From an uncultured Clostridia bacterium (GTDB lineage: Bacteria; Bacillota; Clostridia; Christensenellales; DTU072), in NCBI GenBank assembly GCA_944363505.1, contig CALVUD010000007.1, forward strand, positions 26,122 through 90,121: a stretch of DNA of 64,000 nucleotides. The letters are read 5' to 3'. Position numbers and translations under genes: made by a program. The notes below the pieces were generated by a model that was not told where the DNA came from, ran no database searches, and saw only the letters and a program-made list of their open reading frames with translations. Of the stretch, positions 8,302-38,163 are shown piece by piece; position 1 is the stretch's first letter, and each line of letters starts with the position of its first letter.

Positions 8302-9070
8302 AGACATCACCTTACGCGCGTTGGAAACGCTGAAAAACGTCGATCTGATCGCGTGCGAAGACACACGCCACACGATGATCCTGTTGAACGCCTACGGCAT
8401 TTCGAAGCCGCTTCTGAGCTGTTACCGCGGCAAAGAAAACGAAAGTGCCGAGAAAATCCTATCGGAACTCAACGCGGGAAAAGACGTGGCGCTGGTCTCA
8501 GACGCCGGCATGCCCGCGGTTTCCGATCCGGGCGCCGTGGTCGTGAACGAATGTATTTCAAAAGGTTTCCGCGTGGAATCCGTACCCGGTCCCAGCGCCG
8601 TAGCTACCGCGTTTTCGGTATCCGGAATATGTAAAACGGGATTCGTATTTTTAGGTTTCCTGCCCGACAAAGCGGGTGAAAGAAAACGTATCATAGAGCG
8701 TATGCCATCGTTTAAAATGCCCGTCGCCGTCTATGTCGCGCCGCACGACATAGACAAGATATTACCGGAACTCAAGGCGCAGGCGGGCATCGGGAGAATA
8801 ACCGTCGTCAAGGAACTGACCAAGATCTACGAAAGCGTCATTCGCATTGACGACGAAATCCCCGACTTCGACCGTCGCGGCGAATTCGTCGTCATAGCGG
8901 AGTCGAAGGAAACCGCATCGACCGATACCGACGCGTTCGAAGCGCTCGAAAAGCTGCTGAAAAACGGCGCCACTCCCTCATCTGCCGCAAAGGAGATCTC
9001 CGCGCTTTACGGCGTAAACAAAAACGCTCTTTACCGCCGCGCCCTCGAGTTTTGTTCCGAAAAGCGATAG
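8255..9070 (+). CDS. rsmI: 16S rRNA (cytidine1402-2'-O)-methyltransferase
   Basis: 271 aa. N-terminus LFVVGTPIGNLKDITLRALETL is typical of RsmI. Overlaps the preceding gene by 47 nt. Confidence 0.9.
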   Translation: MSATLFVVGTPIGNLKDITLRALETLKNVDLIACEDTRHTMILLNAYGISKPLLSCYRGKENESAEKILSELNAGKDVALVSDAGMPAVSDPGAVVVNECISKGFRVESVPGPSAVATAFSVSGICKTGFVFLGFLPDKAGERKRIIERMPSFKMPVAVYVAPHDIDKILPELKAQAGIGRITVVKELTKIYESVIRIDDEIPDFDRRGEFVVIAESKETASTDTDAFEALEKLLKNGATPSSAAKEISALYGVNKNALYRRALEFCSEKR

Positions 9071-9126
9071 TCTAAAACCGGTCGTGTCGTCTGAATTGAC
9101 GTCTAATACGTTGATTGGCTAAAATT

Positions 9127-9333
9127 TCAGTAATCCTTGCGCCCCGTAAGGTAATCCAGGTCTTCGCCGAAATAGTCGGCTATCTTACACAGATTTTCCA
9201 AACCGATCTCTCGCTGGCATAAAATATAGCGCGATAAAGTTTGTTGCGGGATCTTTAACTTTTTTGCAACGGAATTTATGCTTTCGTTTCCTATTGTTTC
9301 TTTTAGCCGTTCAGCAAATTTTTCCACATACAT
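9127..9333 (-). CDS. XRE-family helix-turn-helix transcriptional regulator
   Basis: 68 aa. HTH segment SINSVAKKLKIPQQTLSRYILCQREIGLENLCKIADYF. AT-rich codon usage. Confidence 0.85.
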   Translation of the reverse strand: MYVEKFAERLKETIGNESINSVAKKLKIPQQTLSRYILCQREIGLENLCKIADYFGEDLDYLTGRKDY

Positions 9334-9345
9334 TCTGAAATTATG

Positions 9346-9390
9346 TTACACCAAACGGTGTTTAATTCTTGACATTACACCAAACGGTGT
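9346..9390. promoter_or_regulatory. Twin palindromic operators in the divergent XRE/DUF4352 control region
   Basis: TTACACCAAACGGTGT occurs twice (9346-9361 and 9375-9390), each with the dyad ACACC-N4-GGTGT, 29 bp apart. TTGACA lies at 9369-9374 and an extended -10, TGgTATAAT, at 9399-9407. On the minus strand CATAAT lies 6 nt before the XRE ATG. Confidence 0.7.
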
Positions 9391-9427
9391 GATATGCTTG
9401 GTATAATTTATGTGGGGAGGTAAATCC

Positions 9428-10072
9428 GTGTCAACCGATATCGAAGAATTCACTACAAACGAAACAGCCGTAAACACTTCAAGCTCAACAAATCCGAACA
9501 AACAGAATAAAAATTCAAACAAGAAAAATTTTTATAAAAAATGGTGGTTTTGGGTGATAATTGCTGTCGTGGCAGCAATCATAATCGGGGCTGCCGCAGG
9601 AAGCGCGGACGGTAACGGGGGCGACGAAATTCAAGATCATGAAAACGTCAATTCAAGCGAAGCCTGGTACATATGCGATAACGCGACCAACAGTTCTGAT
9701 ATTGTTTTCAAAGTAAATTCCGTGCAAAACACTCAATTTGTCGGAAGCGGCATACTTTCGGAAAGCACCTCAAATAATTTCGCTATTGTAAATATTTCCA
9801 TCAGCAACAATAGCGACAAACCGTTTTCCGCCAACCCGAATAATTTTAATTTAGTATTAAACGGCAAGAAATATAATTATCATAGTGCAACATACTATCT
9901 CGACAACGGAATGTCAAGCCAGGACGATATAAATCCCGGCATTACGAAAACGTACAGAATAGTTTTCGAAGTTCCCACGTCGACCTTAAATGACACCTAC
10001 ACTTTGGTTTGCGGCAACAACTACTCATTGCCGTGGAAGGACATCGAAATACTGCTTAAAGAAAGAAGCTGA
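9428..10072 (+). CDS. DUF4352-like membrane-anchored protein
   Basis: A GTG start at 9428 sits 7 nt after SD GGGGAGG; the ORF-track start is 9410. The protein has an N/K-rich N-terminus, one TM helix (WWFWVIIAVVAAIIIGAAAG) and a C-terminal beta-sandwich-type pattern (FAIVNISISNNSDKPF...INPGITKTYRIVFEVP). AT-rich. Confidence 0.65.
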   Translation: MSTDIEEFTTNETAVNTSSSTNPNKQNKNSNKKNFYKKWWFWVIIAVVAAIIIGAAAGSADGNGGDEIQDHENVNSSEAWYICDNATNSSDIVFKVNSVQNTQFVGSGILSESTSNNFAIVNISISNNSDKPFSANPNNFNLVLNGKKYNYHSATYYLDNGMSSQDDINPGITKTYRIVFEVPTSTLNDTYTLVCGNNYSLPWKDIEILLKERS

Positions 10073-33425: not shown

Positions 33426-33857
33426 TCAGGCGAGAATGACGTCCGAGGAAGTGGCTTCGACCTCGTCGCCGTCGTGCAAAACGACCTTGTCGCCGTGCTT
33501 GTAGGTTCTGACGTATCCCGCCACCCTAATTTTAAATTCGCCGACGGCGTCCAAAGATTTCAGTGCCGTATAAACTCCGGGCATCAGCTCTCCGCCCTTT
33601 TCCACGACGTACACCACGCCGCGCGCGAGAACGAAATCCTTTTGGGTCAGCCTTACGTTTTCCTTGCCGTCCGTAAACGCCGCTTCGTCGGTCGAATACC
33701 TGACCCCTTTCCTTATTTTTACGTCGTCGGGATATTCGCCCTTTTCGCGTTGAGCCTTTTTGAGTCTGTAATAGGCTATCGATACCATGATTATTCCCGC
33801 CGCCAGAATAGCCACGGCGACGGAAAACAACAAAATTATAAGTTGTGTTTTATCCAT
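33426..33857 (-). CDS. small single-pass membrane protein, unknown function
   Basis: The start is taken at ATG 33857 (MDKTQLIILLFSVAVAILAAGIIMVSIAYY...), preceded by SD AAGGAG. The ORF-track start at 33929 lies inside the upstream gene. 143 aa. Confidence 0.6.
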   Translation of the reverse strand: MDKTQLIILLFSVAVAILAAGIIMVSIAYYRLKKAQREKGEYPDDVKIRKGVRYSTDEAAFTDGKENVRLTQKDFVLARGVVYVVEKGGELMPGVYTALKSLDAVGEFKIRVAGYVRTYKHGDKVVLHDGDEVEATSSDVILA

Positions 33858-33868
33858 ATCGCGACTCC

Positions 33869-34897
33869 TTACAGCTTTTTGCCGCACTCGGGACAAAACT
33901 TTGCGCCCGAATCCACTTTCGCCCCGCACTCGGGACAGAACTTAGAGCCGATCTGCTTGCCGCACTCGGGACAGAATTTGGACTTTGCAGGCACGCTTTT
34001 ACCGCATTCGGGGCAGATTACCGCTCCCGCGTCGGCTGTCGTTTTTTTGGGTTCGTCGTTTGAAAAGCCTTTGGAAAATTGCGCTCCCATACCGAAGCCC
34101 ATAGCGGCGCCCATGGCGGTACCCATTGTCTGACCCATCGCGGAATTGTTCTTCGCCGCCTCGCGTATGGCGTCCGCCTCTGCGAGTTTTCTGTAGATCT
34201 CGGCGTTTTTGCCGAACATGCTGAGTCTGGCGTTCTCGTCGAACGCCTTTTCGAGTTCGGGCGGCAAAGAAACGCTCTCGAACACGAACGTGCTGAGTTC
34301 TATGCCGTTTTCCTCCATGTGCGGTTCCAGTTTCTTCCCTACCGCGGCGCTCAGTTCCAGTAAATTCGCCGCCATGTCAAGGACGGGCACGCCGCTCTCG
34401 CCTATCGCGTCGGACAAGCCCATGACCAACATACTGCGGATAAAGTCGGTGATGTCCGATGTCGCAAACGAAGACTTGACGCCCATAAGCACGGTCAGGA
34501 ACTTGTACGGGTCGCTCACGCGGAAGGCGTAGGTCCCGTAAGCCCTGAGTCTTATAGCGCCGTAATCGGCGTCGCGCACCATGACGGGGGTCGCCGTTCC
34601 CCATTTAAGTCCCGAAAAACGCGCCGTATTCACAAAATACAGATCGTCCTTATACGGGGTTTCGAAGGCGAATCGCCACGCCATCAGCCTTGTCAGGATC
34701 GGGATCGTCCTGGAGTCGAGACTGTACGTCCCGGGACCGAACACGTCGGCAAGTTTGCCGCGGTCGCAAAAGATCGCCGCCTGTCCTTCCCTTACGACCA
34801 GCCTGGAGCCGCGCTCTATCGCGTTTTCTCTGGTCGGATACTTGTAAACTATCGTGTCGGGCGCTCCCGACCATTCAATGATCTGTAATAAAGCCAT
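33869..34897 (-). CDS. SPFH/Band-7-like protein (COG4260, YdjI-like) with four C-terminal CPECG zinc-ribbon knuckles
   Basis: The start is taken at ATG 34897 (MALLQIIEWSG...), preceded by GGGAG. The body pattern VVREGQAAIF...YFVNTARFSGLKWGTATPV...AYGTYAFRVSDP fits the family. The tail reads CPECGKSVPAKSKFCPECGKQIGSKFCPECGAKVDSGAKFCPECG. Confidence 0.8.
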   Translation of the reverse strand: MALLQIIEWSGAPDTIVYKYPTRENAIERGSRLVVREGQAAIFCDRGKLADVFGPGTYSLDSRTIPILTRLMAWRFAFETPYKDDLYFVNTARFSGLKWGTATPVMVRDADYGAIRLRAYGTYAFRVSDPYKFLTVLMGVKSSFATSDITDFIRSMLVMGLSDAIGESGVPVLDMAANLLELSAAVGKKLEPHMEENGIELSTFVFESVSLPPELEKAFDENARLSMFGKNAEIYRKLAEADAIREAAKNNSAMGQTMGTAMGAAMGFGMGAQFSKGFSNDEPKKTTADAGAVICPECGKSVPAKSKFCPECGKQIGSKFCPECGAKVDSGAKFCPECGKKL

Positions 34898-34980
34898 ATC
34901 CACTCCCGCGGTTTCCCGCATATTTAGTAAAATCAGTTTAGCACAGCTTGAAACCCGTGTCAATCCGTGCGTTTTCGCCC

Positions 34981-35009
34981 TTGACAAAAAGTCGCTCAAT
35001 ATTTATACT
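34981..35009 (+). promoter_or_regulatory. near-consensus sigma-70 promoter with a very short or absent leader
   Basis: TTGACA (34981-34986), 17-nt spacer, TATACT (35004-35009). ATG is at 35019 and there is no SD. Confidence 0.6.
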
Positions 35010-35018
35010 GGAATCGGT

Positions 35019-35525
35019 ATGGAAAAGATAAAACACGATCTTAAAAAACAACTGATAACTGCGGTTATTTTGACCGTTTCGCTGCCTTTTGGCGGAGTGT
35101 TGCTGGGCGTGGGACTGGGCATCGGTCAGCCCGGCGTATGGGCTGTAGGCATAGCGTTCATGGTCGCGGGCTTTTACGGCTGTCCGATAGCGTGGGCTGC
35201 GGGATACGGCAATACCAAAGGATTGGTAAGGGTCGTCAACGCGGTGCGCGACGAACATCTGTATACCGTTCAGGAGATCTCGGCTCAGCTCGGCGTCAAC
35301 GAGCGACAGGTACGCATGAAACTCGACGCCTGTTTCAATAAACAGTACCTGACCGGCTTCAAGCGCGAAGGCGATATCATAAAAGCCAATTTCAACAAGG
35401 ATATTCTGAATCGGACGTTGAGCGCGGAATGCGTAAACTGCGGAGCGAAGTTTTCTTATAACGCCGCCGACCACGCCCCGCGTTGTCCCTATTGCGGTTC
35501 GCCCGTAAACACTAATAATTTATAA
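35019..35525 (+). CDS. membrane protein with a cytoplasmic winged-helix-like segment and a C-terminal zinc ribbon, unknown function
   Basis: The start is taken at ATG 35019 (MEKIKHDLKK...). The ORF-track start at 34854 overlaps the divergent SPFH gene. Two TM helices, YTVQEISAQLGVNERQVRMKLD, and CVNCGAKF...CPYCG. Confidence 0.6.
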   Translation: MEKIKHDLKKQLITAVILTVSLPFGGVLLGVGLGIGQPGVWAVGIAFMVAGFYGCPIAWAAGYGNTKGLVRVVNAVRDEHLYTVQEISAQLGVNERQVRMKLDACFNKQYLTGFKREGDIIKANFNKDILNRTLSAECVNCGAKFSYNAADHAPRCPYCGSPVNTNNL

Positions 35526-35590
35526 TTAATTATATAACTTACCTATATTATCTAATCAAAATTCATAATTAAAATGGTTAATTTTTAATC

Positions 35591-36457
35591 CTACTTATCT
35601 TTTAACCTTCTTAGTGGTAATTCAAATTGATTGATAATTGAATAATACGATTTACCTCCAGATAATAATCTATTAAAAGTTGAAAATTCATCAGTAAGTC
35701 CTAATTTATCAAATGTATCTCTAACCATACCCGCTTCTACAGGTCTAGTCCATCCATAAAATTTAACAATATATGATAGCTCTTTATTTCTTATTATTCC
35801 TTTTGCTTTACGTTTAAATTTGATTTTCATATTATCTAACTCGAATGAAACATTATGCATTTCTGACAATAAAGAACAAAACTCTTTCATATTCAAATCG
35901 GCATGTATAGATCTATCTTTTTTTTCCGTAATCTGCCTTAAGATATACGCTATAGTTTCTATTACTGGATCATCCTCCTTTTTAAACTTTTTGTATTGGT
36001 GCGCATATTTATGTGCAATATCACCCTTTGCCACAGATTTAACCAGTTCTTCAAATTGTTCTACTGATTGTATAGGAAAATAACCATATTCCGTAAGCTG
36101 TTTAAGCAATACCAACAAAGCAGTTCTTTTATTACCATCATGAAACGGATGATCTTTAGTCAAGCCAAAAAACAAGGTTGCACAAATATGTATTGGTTCA
36201 GTATATTTTAATTTTCCACCATTTGATACAAGTTGTCTAGAAATTGCAGAACAAAGTAAATCAGACGATCTAACACCTGCCAACATTTTTTCTGCTGTCG
36301 TCCCACCTGATTCATCTGTAAAATAATCAGCCAATATATAATGAGCTTTTAGAACATCTTCCACATTAATTAGTGGACTATAAATATCAGGAAGATTAGG
36401 TGTCTTTAATAAATCATATTCATATGCCTTTTTCAAATAATCCGGTAGGTATTTCAT
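35591..36457 (-). CDS. Fic/Doc (Fido) family protein with a Doc-type active-site motif
   Basis: 288 aa. HPFHDGNKRT is encoded at 36122-36151 (checked codon by codon). SD GAGGAAAA precedes the ATG. Composition is extremely AT-rich compared with the flanking genes. Confidence 0.85.
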   Translation of the reverse strand: MKYLPDYLKKAYEYDLLKTPNLPDIYSPLINVEDVLKAHYILADYFTDESGGTTAEKMLAGVRSSDLLCSAISRQLVSNGGKLKYTEPIHICATLFFGLTKDHPFHDGNKRTALLVLLKQLTEYGYFPIQSVEQFEELVKSVAKGDIAHKYAHQYKKFKKEDDPVIETIAYILRQITEKKDRSIHADLNMKEFCSLLSEMHNVSFELDNMKIKFKRKAKGIIRNKELSYIVKFYGWTRPVEAGMVRDTFDKLGLTDEFSTFNRLLSGGKSYYSIINQFELPLRRLKDK

Positions 36458-36763
36458 GTTTTCCTCATTTTTTATAATATAATATTATATTATACTATTG
36501 TATTAAAAAAATAAATAGTTTTTTAGATTTTTTCTTACTAAAAATAAGCATATCAAAATTAATATTCTTTAATAAATTAATAAAAATTATAAAATATTGC
36601 TTGTTTCTTTATAACTATATAGAACGTTTATAAATATTTGTAGTATTTCTAATTATTATCTTCCTTTTTTAAATATCTTAAAGAGTAATATGATTTCAGG
36701 TGTAATTATAATTTTATATATCTGCTTCTCTATTCGTATAATATTGATATCTTTTGATATATT

Positions 36764-36791
36764 AAAAAGCCCGCCTTTCGGCGGGCTTTTT
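36764..36791 (-). terminator. terminator of the M28 peptidase gene
   Basis: AAAAAGCCCGCC-TTTC-GGCGGGCTTTTT. Confidence 0.85.
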
Positions 36792-36801
36792 AATCGTTCG
36801 G

Positions 36802-38163
36802 TTATTCTTCGGTCTTTTCAGCTTCGGCTTCGGAAGTCGCGGGGGCTTCGGGAGCCGCTATAATTTCGGGCGCCGCGGGGGCTTCGGGAGCCGCTTTAGC
36901 TTCGGCATCGGAAACGGCTTCGGCTGAAGTTTCGGGAACTATTTCGACCTTTGCGACGGCGCGTGAAGCCGCAATCTTTTTGATGGTGTTGACGATCACG
37001 GCAAATCCCTTTTCGAACACTTCGACGCTCAAACGGTCGGAAGTGTCGTTATTGGTGTGATAATAGTCGGAAACGGTGGGCATCTGTGCGGCGAAGGTTA
37101 CGGTACGCACGCCGACCTTGCAGAACGGAGTGGAATCGCACCCGCCCACGGGATTGACGATCTCGTTGATCTTTTCGCCCGTTTCTCCGATCGCTTCCTT
37201 CATCATGTCGATCATTCCCCTGTCGAACTTCGTGCCCTGCCACGGGTCGCCCTTGACGGCGGCGAAGTATCCGGGGTCGGAAATGGAATCCACGTTCAGG
37301 ACGTACATGTTGTTTTTGTCGAACTCGTCCTTATGCGCTTTGACGTATGCGAACGAGCCTTTCAGTCCCGATTCTTCCGCAGCGAAGCCGATATTGACAA
37401 GCTTCATTCCCTCGGGCATCTCTTCGGGATGTTCTTTGAAATACTTCATTACCATCATATTCAGACCTATGCCGCTCATGTTGTCCATGGCGCCGGGGCT
37501 GCCTATGGTCTTGTCCTGAGTCAGGAAATGGCTGATAAAGAAAAATCCGGGGATCGCCGCCACGGGAAGAACGTATAACACTATCGAAGCGACGTATGCG
37601 TCCTCCAGCACGCCGAAGGTGTTCAGTATGCTGAAAAGGCTCATTACCGCCATGCCTACGGCGCAAAGTATTCCGTAGCCGGTCTTGATCATAGCGGTCT
37701 TGGGGTTCATCGCGGCGAGTTTCCAGCACCAGCTGGTATCGTAATGCGCGCCGAGATATACGGTATAGTCGGTTTTGCCGTTTCGGGGTTCGAGTTCGGT
37801 TATGATATTTTCGGCTTTCTCTTTTTTGAAACAGAAATCCCATATTCCCGTATAACGCACTATCTGCATAAAGGTAAACACCAGAATACCTATGTATCCG
37901 ATAAGCGAGAGGATCGGCGCTCCTATGTAATAAAGCACCAACAGCGCCATGGCGACCCAGCCCAGTTTGTTGATGGCGCCGATACTCGCCTCGGGCGCGA
38001 AAACAAAACTTTCCGTCCTGGGTTTCAGACCGACTCTTTCGTTCATTTCGCCTACAAGCTTTTTGCAAGCGGCTTTTTCTTCGGCAGAGCCGGGCAGTCT
38101 GGCGCCGTCCGCTTCTATGGTCCGGACGATCTCCATTGCTTCTTCTGCGTATTTTCTGTACAT
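36802..38163 (-). CDS. M28-family membrane metallopeptidase with an Ala/Pro/Glu-rich C-terminal tail
   Basis: 453 aa. Internal TM helices, zinc-ligand blocks GAMDNMSGIG and FAAEESGLKGS, and the tail APEAPAAPEIIAAPEAPATSEAEAEKTEE. Confidence 0.8.
   Translation of the reverse strand: MYRKYAEEAMEIVRTIEADGARLPGSAEEKAACKKLVGEMNERVGLKPRTESFVFAPEASIGAINKLGWVAMALLVLYYIGAPILSLIGYIGILVFTFMQIVRYTGIWDFCFKKEKAENIITELEPRNGKTDYTVYLGAHYDTSWCWKLAAMNPKTAMIKTGYGILCAVGMAVMSLFSILNTFGVLEDAYVASIVLYVLPVAAIPGFFFISHFLTQDKTIGSPGAMDNMSGIGLNMMVMKYFKEHPEEMPEGMKLVNIGFAAEESGLKGSFAYVKAHKDEFDKNNMYVLNVDSISDPGYFAAVKGDPWQGTKFDRGMIDMMKEAIGETGEKINEIVNPVGGCDSTPFCKVGVRTVTFAAQMPTVSDYYHTNNDTSDRLSVEVFEKGFAVIVNTIKKIAASRAVAKVEIVPETSAEAVSDAEAKAAPEAPAAPEIIAAPEAPATSEAEAEKTEE

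Follow-up and report, generated by a model that had tools for sequence, protein, structure and literature searches.

A solitary long Doc protein on a strain-variable AT-rich islet of an uncultured Clostridia bacterium, and its candidate built-in inhibitory helix

EF-Tu is the target of P1 Doc, and class III Fic proteins inhibit themselves via a C-terminal α-inh helix, the inhibitory motif of classes I to III being (S/T)xxxE(G/N). In this report we focus on a solitary Doc-type Fic protein of 288 residues, hereafter long Doc, which is encoded on an AT-rich islet within a window of 64,000 nucleotides from an uncultured Clostridia bacterium (GenBank assembly GCA_944363505.1, contig CALVUD010000007.1, positions 26,122 to 90,121; unless a related locus or genome is named, positions below are those of the window, that is, of this whole stretch). 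Passages of Khater and Mohanty (2015) describe Doc proteins as usually single-domain, and according to passages of Kinch (2009) Doc has neither the first helix nor the permuted helix nor the β-hairpin; the model of long Doc shows all three in one chain, with a helix at residues 6-18, a hairpin at residues 78-83 and, in the place of the permuted helix, a C-terminal one. The reading that we favor, and hold with middling confidence, is that long Doc would be a single-chain, self-inhibiting Doc kinase, a fused toxin-antitoxin maintained as a mobile defense or addiction gene. The gene and the parts of its product are as follows.

35591..36457, minus strand: long Doc gene, 288 amino acids plus stop, the only long open reading frame (ORF) of the islet, with a Pfam Fic match.
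36380..36457, minus strand: N-terminal extension, residues 1-26, with a helix at 6-18 in the AlphaFold2 model and no counterpart in P1 Doc.
35921..36379, minus strand: Doc-like core, residues 27-179, from structural alignment to P1 Doc.
36209..36226, minus strand: β-hairpin (flap), residues 78-83, before the active-site helix, from DSSP on the AlphaFold2 model.
36122..36151, minus strand: catalytic motif HPFHDGNKRT, residues 103-112, with the Doc-type Lys110, from the sequence.
35657..35905, minus strand: putative degenerate HicA-like domain, resembling a double-stranded-RNA-binding domain, residues 185-267, from fold matches and profile alignment.
35594..35656, minus strand: tail, residues 268-288, with core P281-L282-x-R284-L285, conserved across phyla and predicted to lie on the catalytic loop.

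Long Doc belongs to the Fic/Doc superfamily and, by motif and fold, to its Doc branch. This agrees with a first-pass annotation made from the DNA letters and a list of their ORFs, which had described a Doc-type Fic protein of 288 residues with HPFHDGNKRT at 36122-36151 and more than twice the length of P1 Doc; the coordinates proved correct, and the P1 Doc chain in the PDB has 126 residues. Pfam Fic (PF02661) matches residues 30-120 with 42.8 bits against a cut-off of 24 (E 9.9e-11), and there is a PHROG "Doc-like toxin" match at E 1e-12. The AlphaFold2 model, built with 41 sequences, has a predicted local distance difference test score (pLDDT) of 91.6 and a predicted template modeling score of 0.85, and its best structural match in VIA is P1 Doc (3dd7_A; Z 14.5, root-mean-square deviation 1.9, 121 of 123 residues aligned). 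The three Doc entries score Z 14.5, 14.2 (3k33_A) and 13.7, the next family 8.3, and the Foldseek template modeling score of the Doc core is 0.76 on the target. P1 Doc aligns from residue 27 on, and the Fic chains of Enterococcus faecalis from residue 3 or 8. Residues H103, F105, D107, G108, N109, K110 and R111 are invariant in the 41 sequences, and the motif H.F.D[GA]NKR is found in 38 of 39 loci. K110 replaces the second Gly of the Fic motif, and a Leu follows NKR where Fic proteins have their second Arg. Because the motif is of this Lys type, with Leu for the second Fic Arg, we infer that the enzyme would be an ATP-dependent kinase like Doc, and by the same analogy its target is probably a translation factor such as EF-Tu. 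Long Doc departs from classical Doc proteins in three respects, namely their small single-domain size, their adjacent antitoxin and the NCBIfam cut-off discussed below.

The element on which our reading turns is the tail. Nothing in the C-terminal half of the protein is better conserved across phyla than these last 20 residues, with PLRRLKDK/E or PLRRLADR as the usual ending and F/Y-x-x-P-L-x-R-L as the consensus, and two lines of evidence bear on where it lies. The first is a re-alignment of the Foldseek candidates. Fic chains with an intact C-terminal helix, namely NmFic (2g03, 3s6a, 3zlm, 5cgl, 5ckl and 5cmt) and the proteins of Helicobacter pylori (2f6s), E. faecalis (5nv5 and 6ep0) and Mycoplasma mycoides (8idv), align to the model from residue 26 to residues 283-288, over 131-138 residues, whereas NmFic delta8 (3se5) and NmFic S182A/E186A (3sn9) align only to residues 179-181, over 116-117 residues. 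Class I Fic proteins, in which the helix comes from the antitoxin, likewise align only to residues 179-181. Passages of Kinch (2009) report that 2f6s and 2g03 have a circularly permuted helix and that in Doc-Phd a segment of Phd replaces it. The tail is predicted to sit where the C-terminal helix of class III proteins and the Phd helix on Doc sit.

The second line comes from a different predictor, which was given residues 1-180 and 181-288 as two chains. The pair scored 0.76, the best of three controls 0.00; 116 of 157 solved complexes and 2 of 215 mismatched pairs score this high, counts that hold only roughly because our own alignments were used. The two-chain runs agree in at least 96% of contacts, with a partner pLDDT of at least 78, and the predicted interface joins D107-R111, L114-L115 and residues 118-119 of the core to Y271-D287 of the tail, K110 contacting L285, R111 contacting L282, and L114 contacting F278, L282 and L285. 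The pLDDT of the tail, 83-88 in the full model versus 67-77 when the C-terminal part is folded alone, is consistent with a tail that leans on the core. The tail is accordingly modeled on the catalytic loop D107-R111. The first-pass annotation had proposed a structure prediction of the extensions of the protein in search of an inhibitory helix, and this is what that prediction returned, a C-terminal helix placed on D107-R111. It had also offered three readings of the gene, a self-inhibited toxin, a toxin controlled in trans or by an RNA, and a domesticated enzyme; with a conserved tail predicted on the catalytic loop, the first of these appears to fit best.

Between core and tail lies the second unusual part of the protein, residues 185-267, whose modeled fold runs helix, three strands, helix; the C-terminal 128 residues, modeled on their own, have a pLDDT of 83.8. 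In a VIA comparison with 48,161 chains, the top five matches of this part were all HicA with near end-to-end cover, for the full as for the C-terminal model: 1whz_A (Z 7.8, 68 of 70 residues aligned), 6g26_E (6.2), 5yrz_D (5.4), 4p78_D (5.4) and 6hpb_C (5.1). Because Z values of 5.1-7.8 are in the range that the tool calls common, and because Foldseek, run with the C-terminal domain alone, returned no HicA match (the best was an AMPK regulatory fragment at E 0.057), we tested the link by profile. With hhalign, a profile of 37 C-terminal domains of the family matched one built from 12 HicA sequences of related genomes with a probability of 93.1% and E 3.1e-7, covering 57 of 57 HicA columns at residues 190-254. 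No Pfam family matched more members than HicA_toxin (PF07927), with 4 of the 37, below its cut-off (best E 0.0029) and tied with DUF5834, which also matched 4 of 37. On the profile and fold evidence the domain is homologous to HicA toxins. Its activity is another matter: the catalytic HicA histidine of the G-S-H segment, H22, invariant in 12 of 12 HicA sequences, is aligned to K211 of long Doc, a column that varies among family members (K, Y, S, T and others), and since the catalytic His is replaced and no His is invariant in the domain, we read it as a degenerate, non-catalytic HicA. The same residues bear on the notion that long Doc is two-headed, its HicA-like domain being an active RNase beside the Doc kinase. 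The profile and fold likeness to HicA toxins is what that notion would lead one to expect, but the missing histidine and a conserved F233-R238 patch, which in the model faces the interface with the Doc core, make it most unlikely. We speculate instead that the domain, placed directly before the tail helix, may be a sensor or targeting module.

If long Doc is a single-chain self-inhibiting Doc kinase, it could work as follows. The islet is a horizontally acquired single-gene cassette, and the one chain that it encodes would hold elements that P1 Doc lacks or borrows from Phd, that is, the N-terminal helix, the β-hairpin and the C-terminal helix (residues ~271-287, core PLxRL). The C-terminal helix would pack across D107-G-N-K-R111 and the helix that follows, with the dead HicA-like domain (185-267) inserted directly before it, and from this position it would hold the kinase off in cis, as Phd does in trans and as α-inh does in class III Fic proteins. 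Some signal would release the helix, possibly one read by the HicA-like domain. A built-in antitoxin-like helix together with a dead HicA domain would explain the missing partner gene. A more pointed version, which we put forward as a doubtful possibility, is that long Doc combines immune sensor and effector in one protein for ligand-gated abortive infection: the dead HicA domain would bind an RNA or protein derived from a phage or from stress, the helix would thereby be drawn away from the catalytic loop, and the freed Doc kinase would shut down translation, so that a fused toxin-antitoxin would have been built from parts of two toxin families.

Long Doc is one member of a large, widespread family that is conserved over its full length. 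It has at least 504 full-length homologs: a word-index search returned 504 proteins at E<=0.001, of which the best 120 listed have 285-354 residues and cover 95-100% of the query, and a scan of one genome per species found at least 409 encoding loci in many phyla; full-length matches come from Clostridia, Bacteroidota, Planctomycetota, Alpha- and Gammaproteobacteria, WWE3, Victivallis, Fibrobacteres and others. With a profile of the C-terminal 128 residues, a search of 1.84 billion representatives gave 671 clusters (at 50% identity) at E<=0.001, 410 of them at E<=1e-10. Among the best 150 of the 671, 95 proteins have at least 255 residues; all carry the domain at the C terminus, and 94 have an NKR-type Fic motif (84 fitting a regular expression, 10 being variants such as HPFxDCNKR). 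The exception, P0183 with 258 residues, shows no such motif within the stretch inspected. The other 55 of the 150 are shorter than 255 residues. We considered a stand-alone form of the C-terminal domain and hold it less likely, as the short representatives inspected look like truncated gene calls; the eight N termini inspected, six of them of short representatives, start inside the Doc core. The ESM Atlas places the protein beside clusters of 257-296 residues automatically named death-on-curing family toxin, and databases label these proteins of ~290 residues type II death-on-curing toxins. The first-pass description of the protein as an orphan therefore fails for the family (504 proteins, 671 clusters) and stands in the sense that no partner gene accompanies it.

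This solitude is found both here and in 40 related loci, as the expectation of no Phd-like partner had it. Crude gene calls for two neighbors on each side of the gene in these loci gave 145 ORFs, which belong to unrelated families (transporters, glycosidases, a transfer RNA (tRNA) synthetase, a sirtuin and others). An all-against-all BLAST of ORFs of 25-160 residues within 700 bp found no shared partner ORF beyond six syntenic locus pairs, and none of the small ORFs near the 40 loci matched the window. Pfam matches to Phd/YefM (PF02604), HicA and HicB (PF15919, PF05534) are absent from this genome, which is 96% complete and has one Fic gene. The survey of homolog neighborhoods proposed at the outset, in short, returned no adjacent antitoxin and no small ORF common to the 40 loci.

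Some of these neighborhoods are mobile or defense-related. PADLOC was run on 58 of the 145 neighbors, the longer ones without an obvious housekeeping domain and those that look defense-like, and by raw count 7 of the 40 loci have restriction-modification, Abi or defense-candidate neighbors (L015, L016, L021, L032, L035, L047 and L050), among them AbiLii at L016, PDC-S20/KAP NTPase at L021, a type ISP enzyme at L035 and a type IV restriction enzyme at L047. Integrases flank the gene at L008 and L013, group II introns at L030, and tRNA genes lie at most 160 nt from it at L004, L005 and L018. As a raw count, taken without a background rate, the 7 of 40 loci no more than suggest an enrichment near defense genes. 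A PADLOC scan of long Doc itself gave weak Fic-core matches to the candidates PDC-S23 (E 8e-7), S04 and S05 and no named system. Four loci have a particular layout. At L015 (3337-8434) the long Doc gene lies between the genes for a type III Mod methyltransferase and a Res subunit, all three co-oriented. At L036 (4899-5771) and L040 (4824-5762), both from sponge-associated genomes, it lies co-oriented between two permease genes (BPD_transp_2), an insertion within a branched-chain amino-acid ATP-binding-cassette transporter operon. At L051 (4869-6639), from a Bacteriovoracaceae genome, a second Fic gene (284 residues, Pfam Fic E 5.6e-11) adjoins the long Doc gene convergently.

The islet, its leader and the host elements at its borders are listed here.

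35507..36763, no strand: AT-rich islet, 1257 bp replacing 45 bp of the empty-site allele, from contig joins and GC profile.
36458..36763, minus strand: non-coding leader/promoter region of the long Doc gene, 306 bp at ~15-21% GC, with a GAGGAA ribosome-binding site.
35019..35525, plus strand: host gene for a 168-residue membrane/zinc-ribbon protein, from its ORF and weak zinc-ribbon Pfam matches, with its last codons from the islet.
36761..36794, no strand: two-way terminator hairpin of convergent host genes, with 15-nt arms that are 100% complementary, at the right islet border.

The leader bears on the idea that long Doc is a conventional toxin neutralized in trans, by an unlinked protein or by an RNA from the upstream region or the antisense strand. 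Room for such an RNA exists in the 306 non-coding bp inside the islet, and an ORF of 87 residues (35820-36083, plus strand) runs antisense within the long Doc gene, so that the first-pass statement that the islet has no small ORF of 60 or more residues was not literally true. We rejected this antisense ORF as a gene and consider it spurious, because its frame, read at matching offsets, contains stops in 6 of the 7 closest homologs (L002-L007) and is open only in L008. Upstream of the gene, 36458-36689 has no ORF of 30 or more residues, and a 57-residue ORF at 36690-36863 (plus strand) runs across the terminator into the peptidase gene; a GAGGAA ribosome-binding site stands at 36461-36466, before the ATG. 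An alignment of seven loci, this one and its six closest homologs, is conserved upstream only at the start codon. Rfam gave no family above threshold for the region, its sub-threshold matches all falling on the terminator, and Tandem Repeats Finder reported only AT low-complexity sequence and no repeats like those of type III antitoxins. Folding is unexceptional (z +1.04; 85 of 100 shuffles fold at least as well), as is the number of promoter-like hexamers (11 versus 8.6 +/- 3.3 in shuffles). These results speak against the RNA antitoxin that the first-pass annotation had considered. An unlinked protein fares no better, given that no Phd/YefM or HicB match was found in the 96% complete genome and that a gene moving alone between phyla cannot rely on an unlinked partner. 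Control in trans is, on balance, improbable.

The islet itself is a strain-variable insertion that was acquired horizontally. Its composition sets it apart, as first noted from an abrupt switch to AT-rich sequence: GC is 0.15-0.34 in 300-nt intervals starting at 35400-36450 and mostly 0.45-0.64 in flanking ones, and the islet holds the lowest 1-kb bins of the whole 64 kb (0.39 and 0.33, others 0.41-0.59). Bin 9001-10000 (0.41) is the second-lowest of the window. We searched 30 related genomes with a 4.6-kb region around the islet. In the closest genome of the same genus (G018) both flanks are 82-84% identical and lie ~139 bp apart, against 1417 bp here, with the terminator kept. At E<=1e-20, a long Doc protein was found in 0 of 21 further species of the genus, whose genomes are at least 90% complete in 13 cases. 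The empty site was also found in contigs of a near-identical strain: a 2924-nt contig of DNA run X13 joins 35506 to 36764 with 1 and 3 mismatches on the two sides, a 1218-nt contig of run X19 makes the same join with 19 and 8 mismatches, and both carry 45 other letters between these positions. Run X13 also has islet contigs (35795-36363, 0 mismatches), so both alleles occur in one chicken-gut sample. In 41 of 45 related loci the gene has a lower GC than the average of the two flanks, and in 38 of 45 the gap is at least 0.05. The comparison of related genomes for presence or absence, which the first-pass annotation had suggested as a check on its claim of horizontal acquisition, has in this way upheld it, through the empty site of G018, the 0 of 21 congeners and the contigs that skip the islet. 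Its domesticated, housekeeping role gained no support from the same comparison, for the gene varies between strains and did not turn up in the other species genomes of this genus. Such mobility speaks against housekeeping without proving toxicity.

The borders need a small correction. An islet had been recognized at 35526-36766; the islet stands, and its exact limits become 35507-36763, because the contigs of a near-identical strain join 35506 to 36764. The left border falls within the last codons of the 168-residue gene, which therefore has a different C terminus in this allele; that C terminus differs in G018 and in the empty-site allele. At the right border, the terminator hairpin 36761-36794 (AAAAAGCCCGCC...GGCGGGCTTTTT) is older than the islet, being retained at the empty site of G018. 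Look-alikes of this hairpin, 31-47 nt long and 81-94% identical, occur elsewhere in this genome at G000:C4:15293-15323, G000:C1:156156-156202 and G000:C7:62882-62915, and also in relatives. The islet encodes no recombinase, and its ends show neither convincing terminal repeats nor a target duplication, only short AT-rich matches of the kind expected by chance, such as 12-nt arms at 35517 and 36703. As for the host flanks, an SPFH/Band-7 protein with three C-terminal zinc-ribbon repeats (33869-34999, minus strand, 376 residues) and a small membrane protein whose gene follows and overlaps its end (33426-33929, minus strand) are encoded just left of the 168-residue zinc-ribbon membrane gene. On the right, the 3' end of the M28 peptidase gene contains an 18-nt tandem repeat in 3.8 copies (GGCTTCGGGAGCCGCGGG, 36826-36898), which encodes an Ala/Pro/Glu-rich C-terminal tail and at which metagenome contigs are length variants (12, 1 and 5 letters missing, and a 36-nt skip).

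An islet with no mobility gene might hold a mere remnant, a passenger gene in decay that at present does nothing in this genome; the metatranscriptome runs X19 and X20 show only the empty-site allele or contigs that end at the islet border, and are uninformative on transcription of the islet. The gene does not look like one in decay: its reading frame is unbroken over the full length, none of the residues that the family keeps invariant has been lost, its ribosome-binding site is good, and a full-length relative with 90% identity exists. We regard decay as very improbable.

Several observations weigh against a self-inhibiting toxin, besides the commonness of Z values at the level of the HicA matches. 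The NCBIfam model DOC_P1 (TIGR01550) scores long Doc at 34.4 bits, below its cut-off of 38.65, and matches only residues 90-149. The score of the two-chain prediction may partly reflect known structures, because the two chains are halves of one gene and complexes of Fic with α-inh and of Doc with Phd have been solved. A helix at the position of the tail is also a plain part of a complete Fic fold and does not require inhibition, and the tail has neither the (S/T)xxxE(G/N) motif nor a conserved Glu, so that inhibition, if any, would be steric and hydrophobic rather than the Glu-Arg lock of AMPylating Fic proteins. Ordinary housekeeping genes neighbor ~30 of the 40 loci, and enrichment near defense genes is not established. 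Finally, full-length copies number 0 on 72,556 plasmids and 0 on 50,697 phage records, with only 1 in IMG/VR, and this near-absence is unusual for an addiction module; on plasmids only short Doc toxins match (residues 29-180, 29% identity, 6 plasmids), and the phage records have no match. Some of these points agree with the main rival explanation, in which long Doc is a regulatory or constitutive Fic/Doc modifying enzyme and not a toxin, its helix structural and its HicA-like domain binding substrate. All core Fic elements in one chain, as in solitary class III Fic proteins, a tail without the inhibitory Glu, housekeeping neighbors at most loci and no full-length copy on the plasmids and phages searched are what such an enzyme would show. 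Against it, a mobile conflict gene is the better fit to a gene that is strain-variable, was not found in 21 congeners and in 41 of 45 loci has less GC than the sequence around it, and the tail is the most strongly conserved stretch of the C-terminal half across phyla and touches, in the model, the catalytic loop. We consider the modifying enzyme a serious possibility, though an unlikely one, and keep the self-inhibiting Doc kinase as our preferred reading.

How does long Doc compare with described systems? Our searches of the open full-text literature turned up neither a Doc-HicA fusion nor a self-complemented Doc, and main-text passages of Makarova (2009) and of Khater and Mohanty (2015) describe none. 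Should the cis helix prove inhibitory, single-chain toxin-antitoxins would extend to the Doc lineage, and the family would connect Phd acting in trans with α-inh acting in cis and offer a simple one-gene system, with at least 671 clusters in many phyla, in which to study the release of such a switch. HicA would also be an example of a toxin domain put to non-catalytic use, in proteins that are annotated as type II toxins and yet have no antitoxin gene.

With P1 Doc-Phd (3dd7, 3k33), long Doc shares the core fold, the Lys-type NKR motif followed by Leu and, in the model, a helix in the Phd-binding groove. The differences are that P1 Doc has 126 residues and receives its helix from Phd, whereas long Doc has 288 and would carry the helix in cis, that long Doc has a HicA-like insert, an N-terminal helix and a hairpin and no antitoxin gene, and that it falls below the TIGR01550 cut-off. 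With class III Fic proteins (NmFic and those of H. pylori and E. faecalis) it has in common a solitary gene, a complete core and, in the model, a C-terminal helix over the active site, but the structural matches reach only Z 7.8-8.3, their motif is GNGRxxR and that of long Doc NKR..L, long Doc lacks (S/T)xxxE(G/N) and has a domain of 100 residues inserted before the helix, and its chemistry, by analogy, is expected to be that of a Doc-like kinase and not AMPylation. The HicA toxins (PF07927; 1whz, 6g26, 6hpb) are matched over their whole profile and in fold; unlike them, the long Doc domain has no catalytic His, lies inside another toxin with no HicB found, and turns its conserved surface, in prediction, toward the Doc core. 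SoFic, in a passage of the Millman et al. 2022 preprint, sets a precedent for phage defense by a lone Fic-domain gene, and is described there as an AMPylase. CapRel (PMC9712102, PMC13423816) and EzeT (PMC4826407) are fused single-chain toxin-antitoxins; long Doc would work like them, with toxin and neutralizing element in one polypeptide encoded by a single mobile gene, if our reading is right, but their folds are unrelated (RelA/SpoT-like and zeta toxin, respectively). Long Doc is therefore likened to class III Fic proteins in layout and to fused toxin-antitoxins in logic, and is a member of neither.

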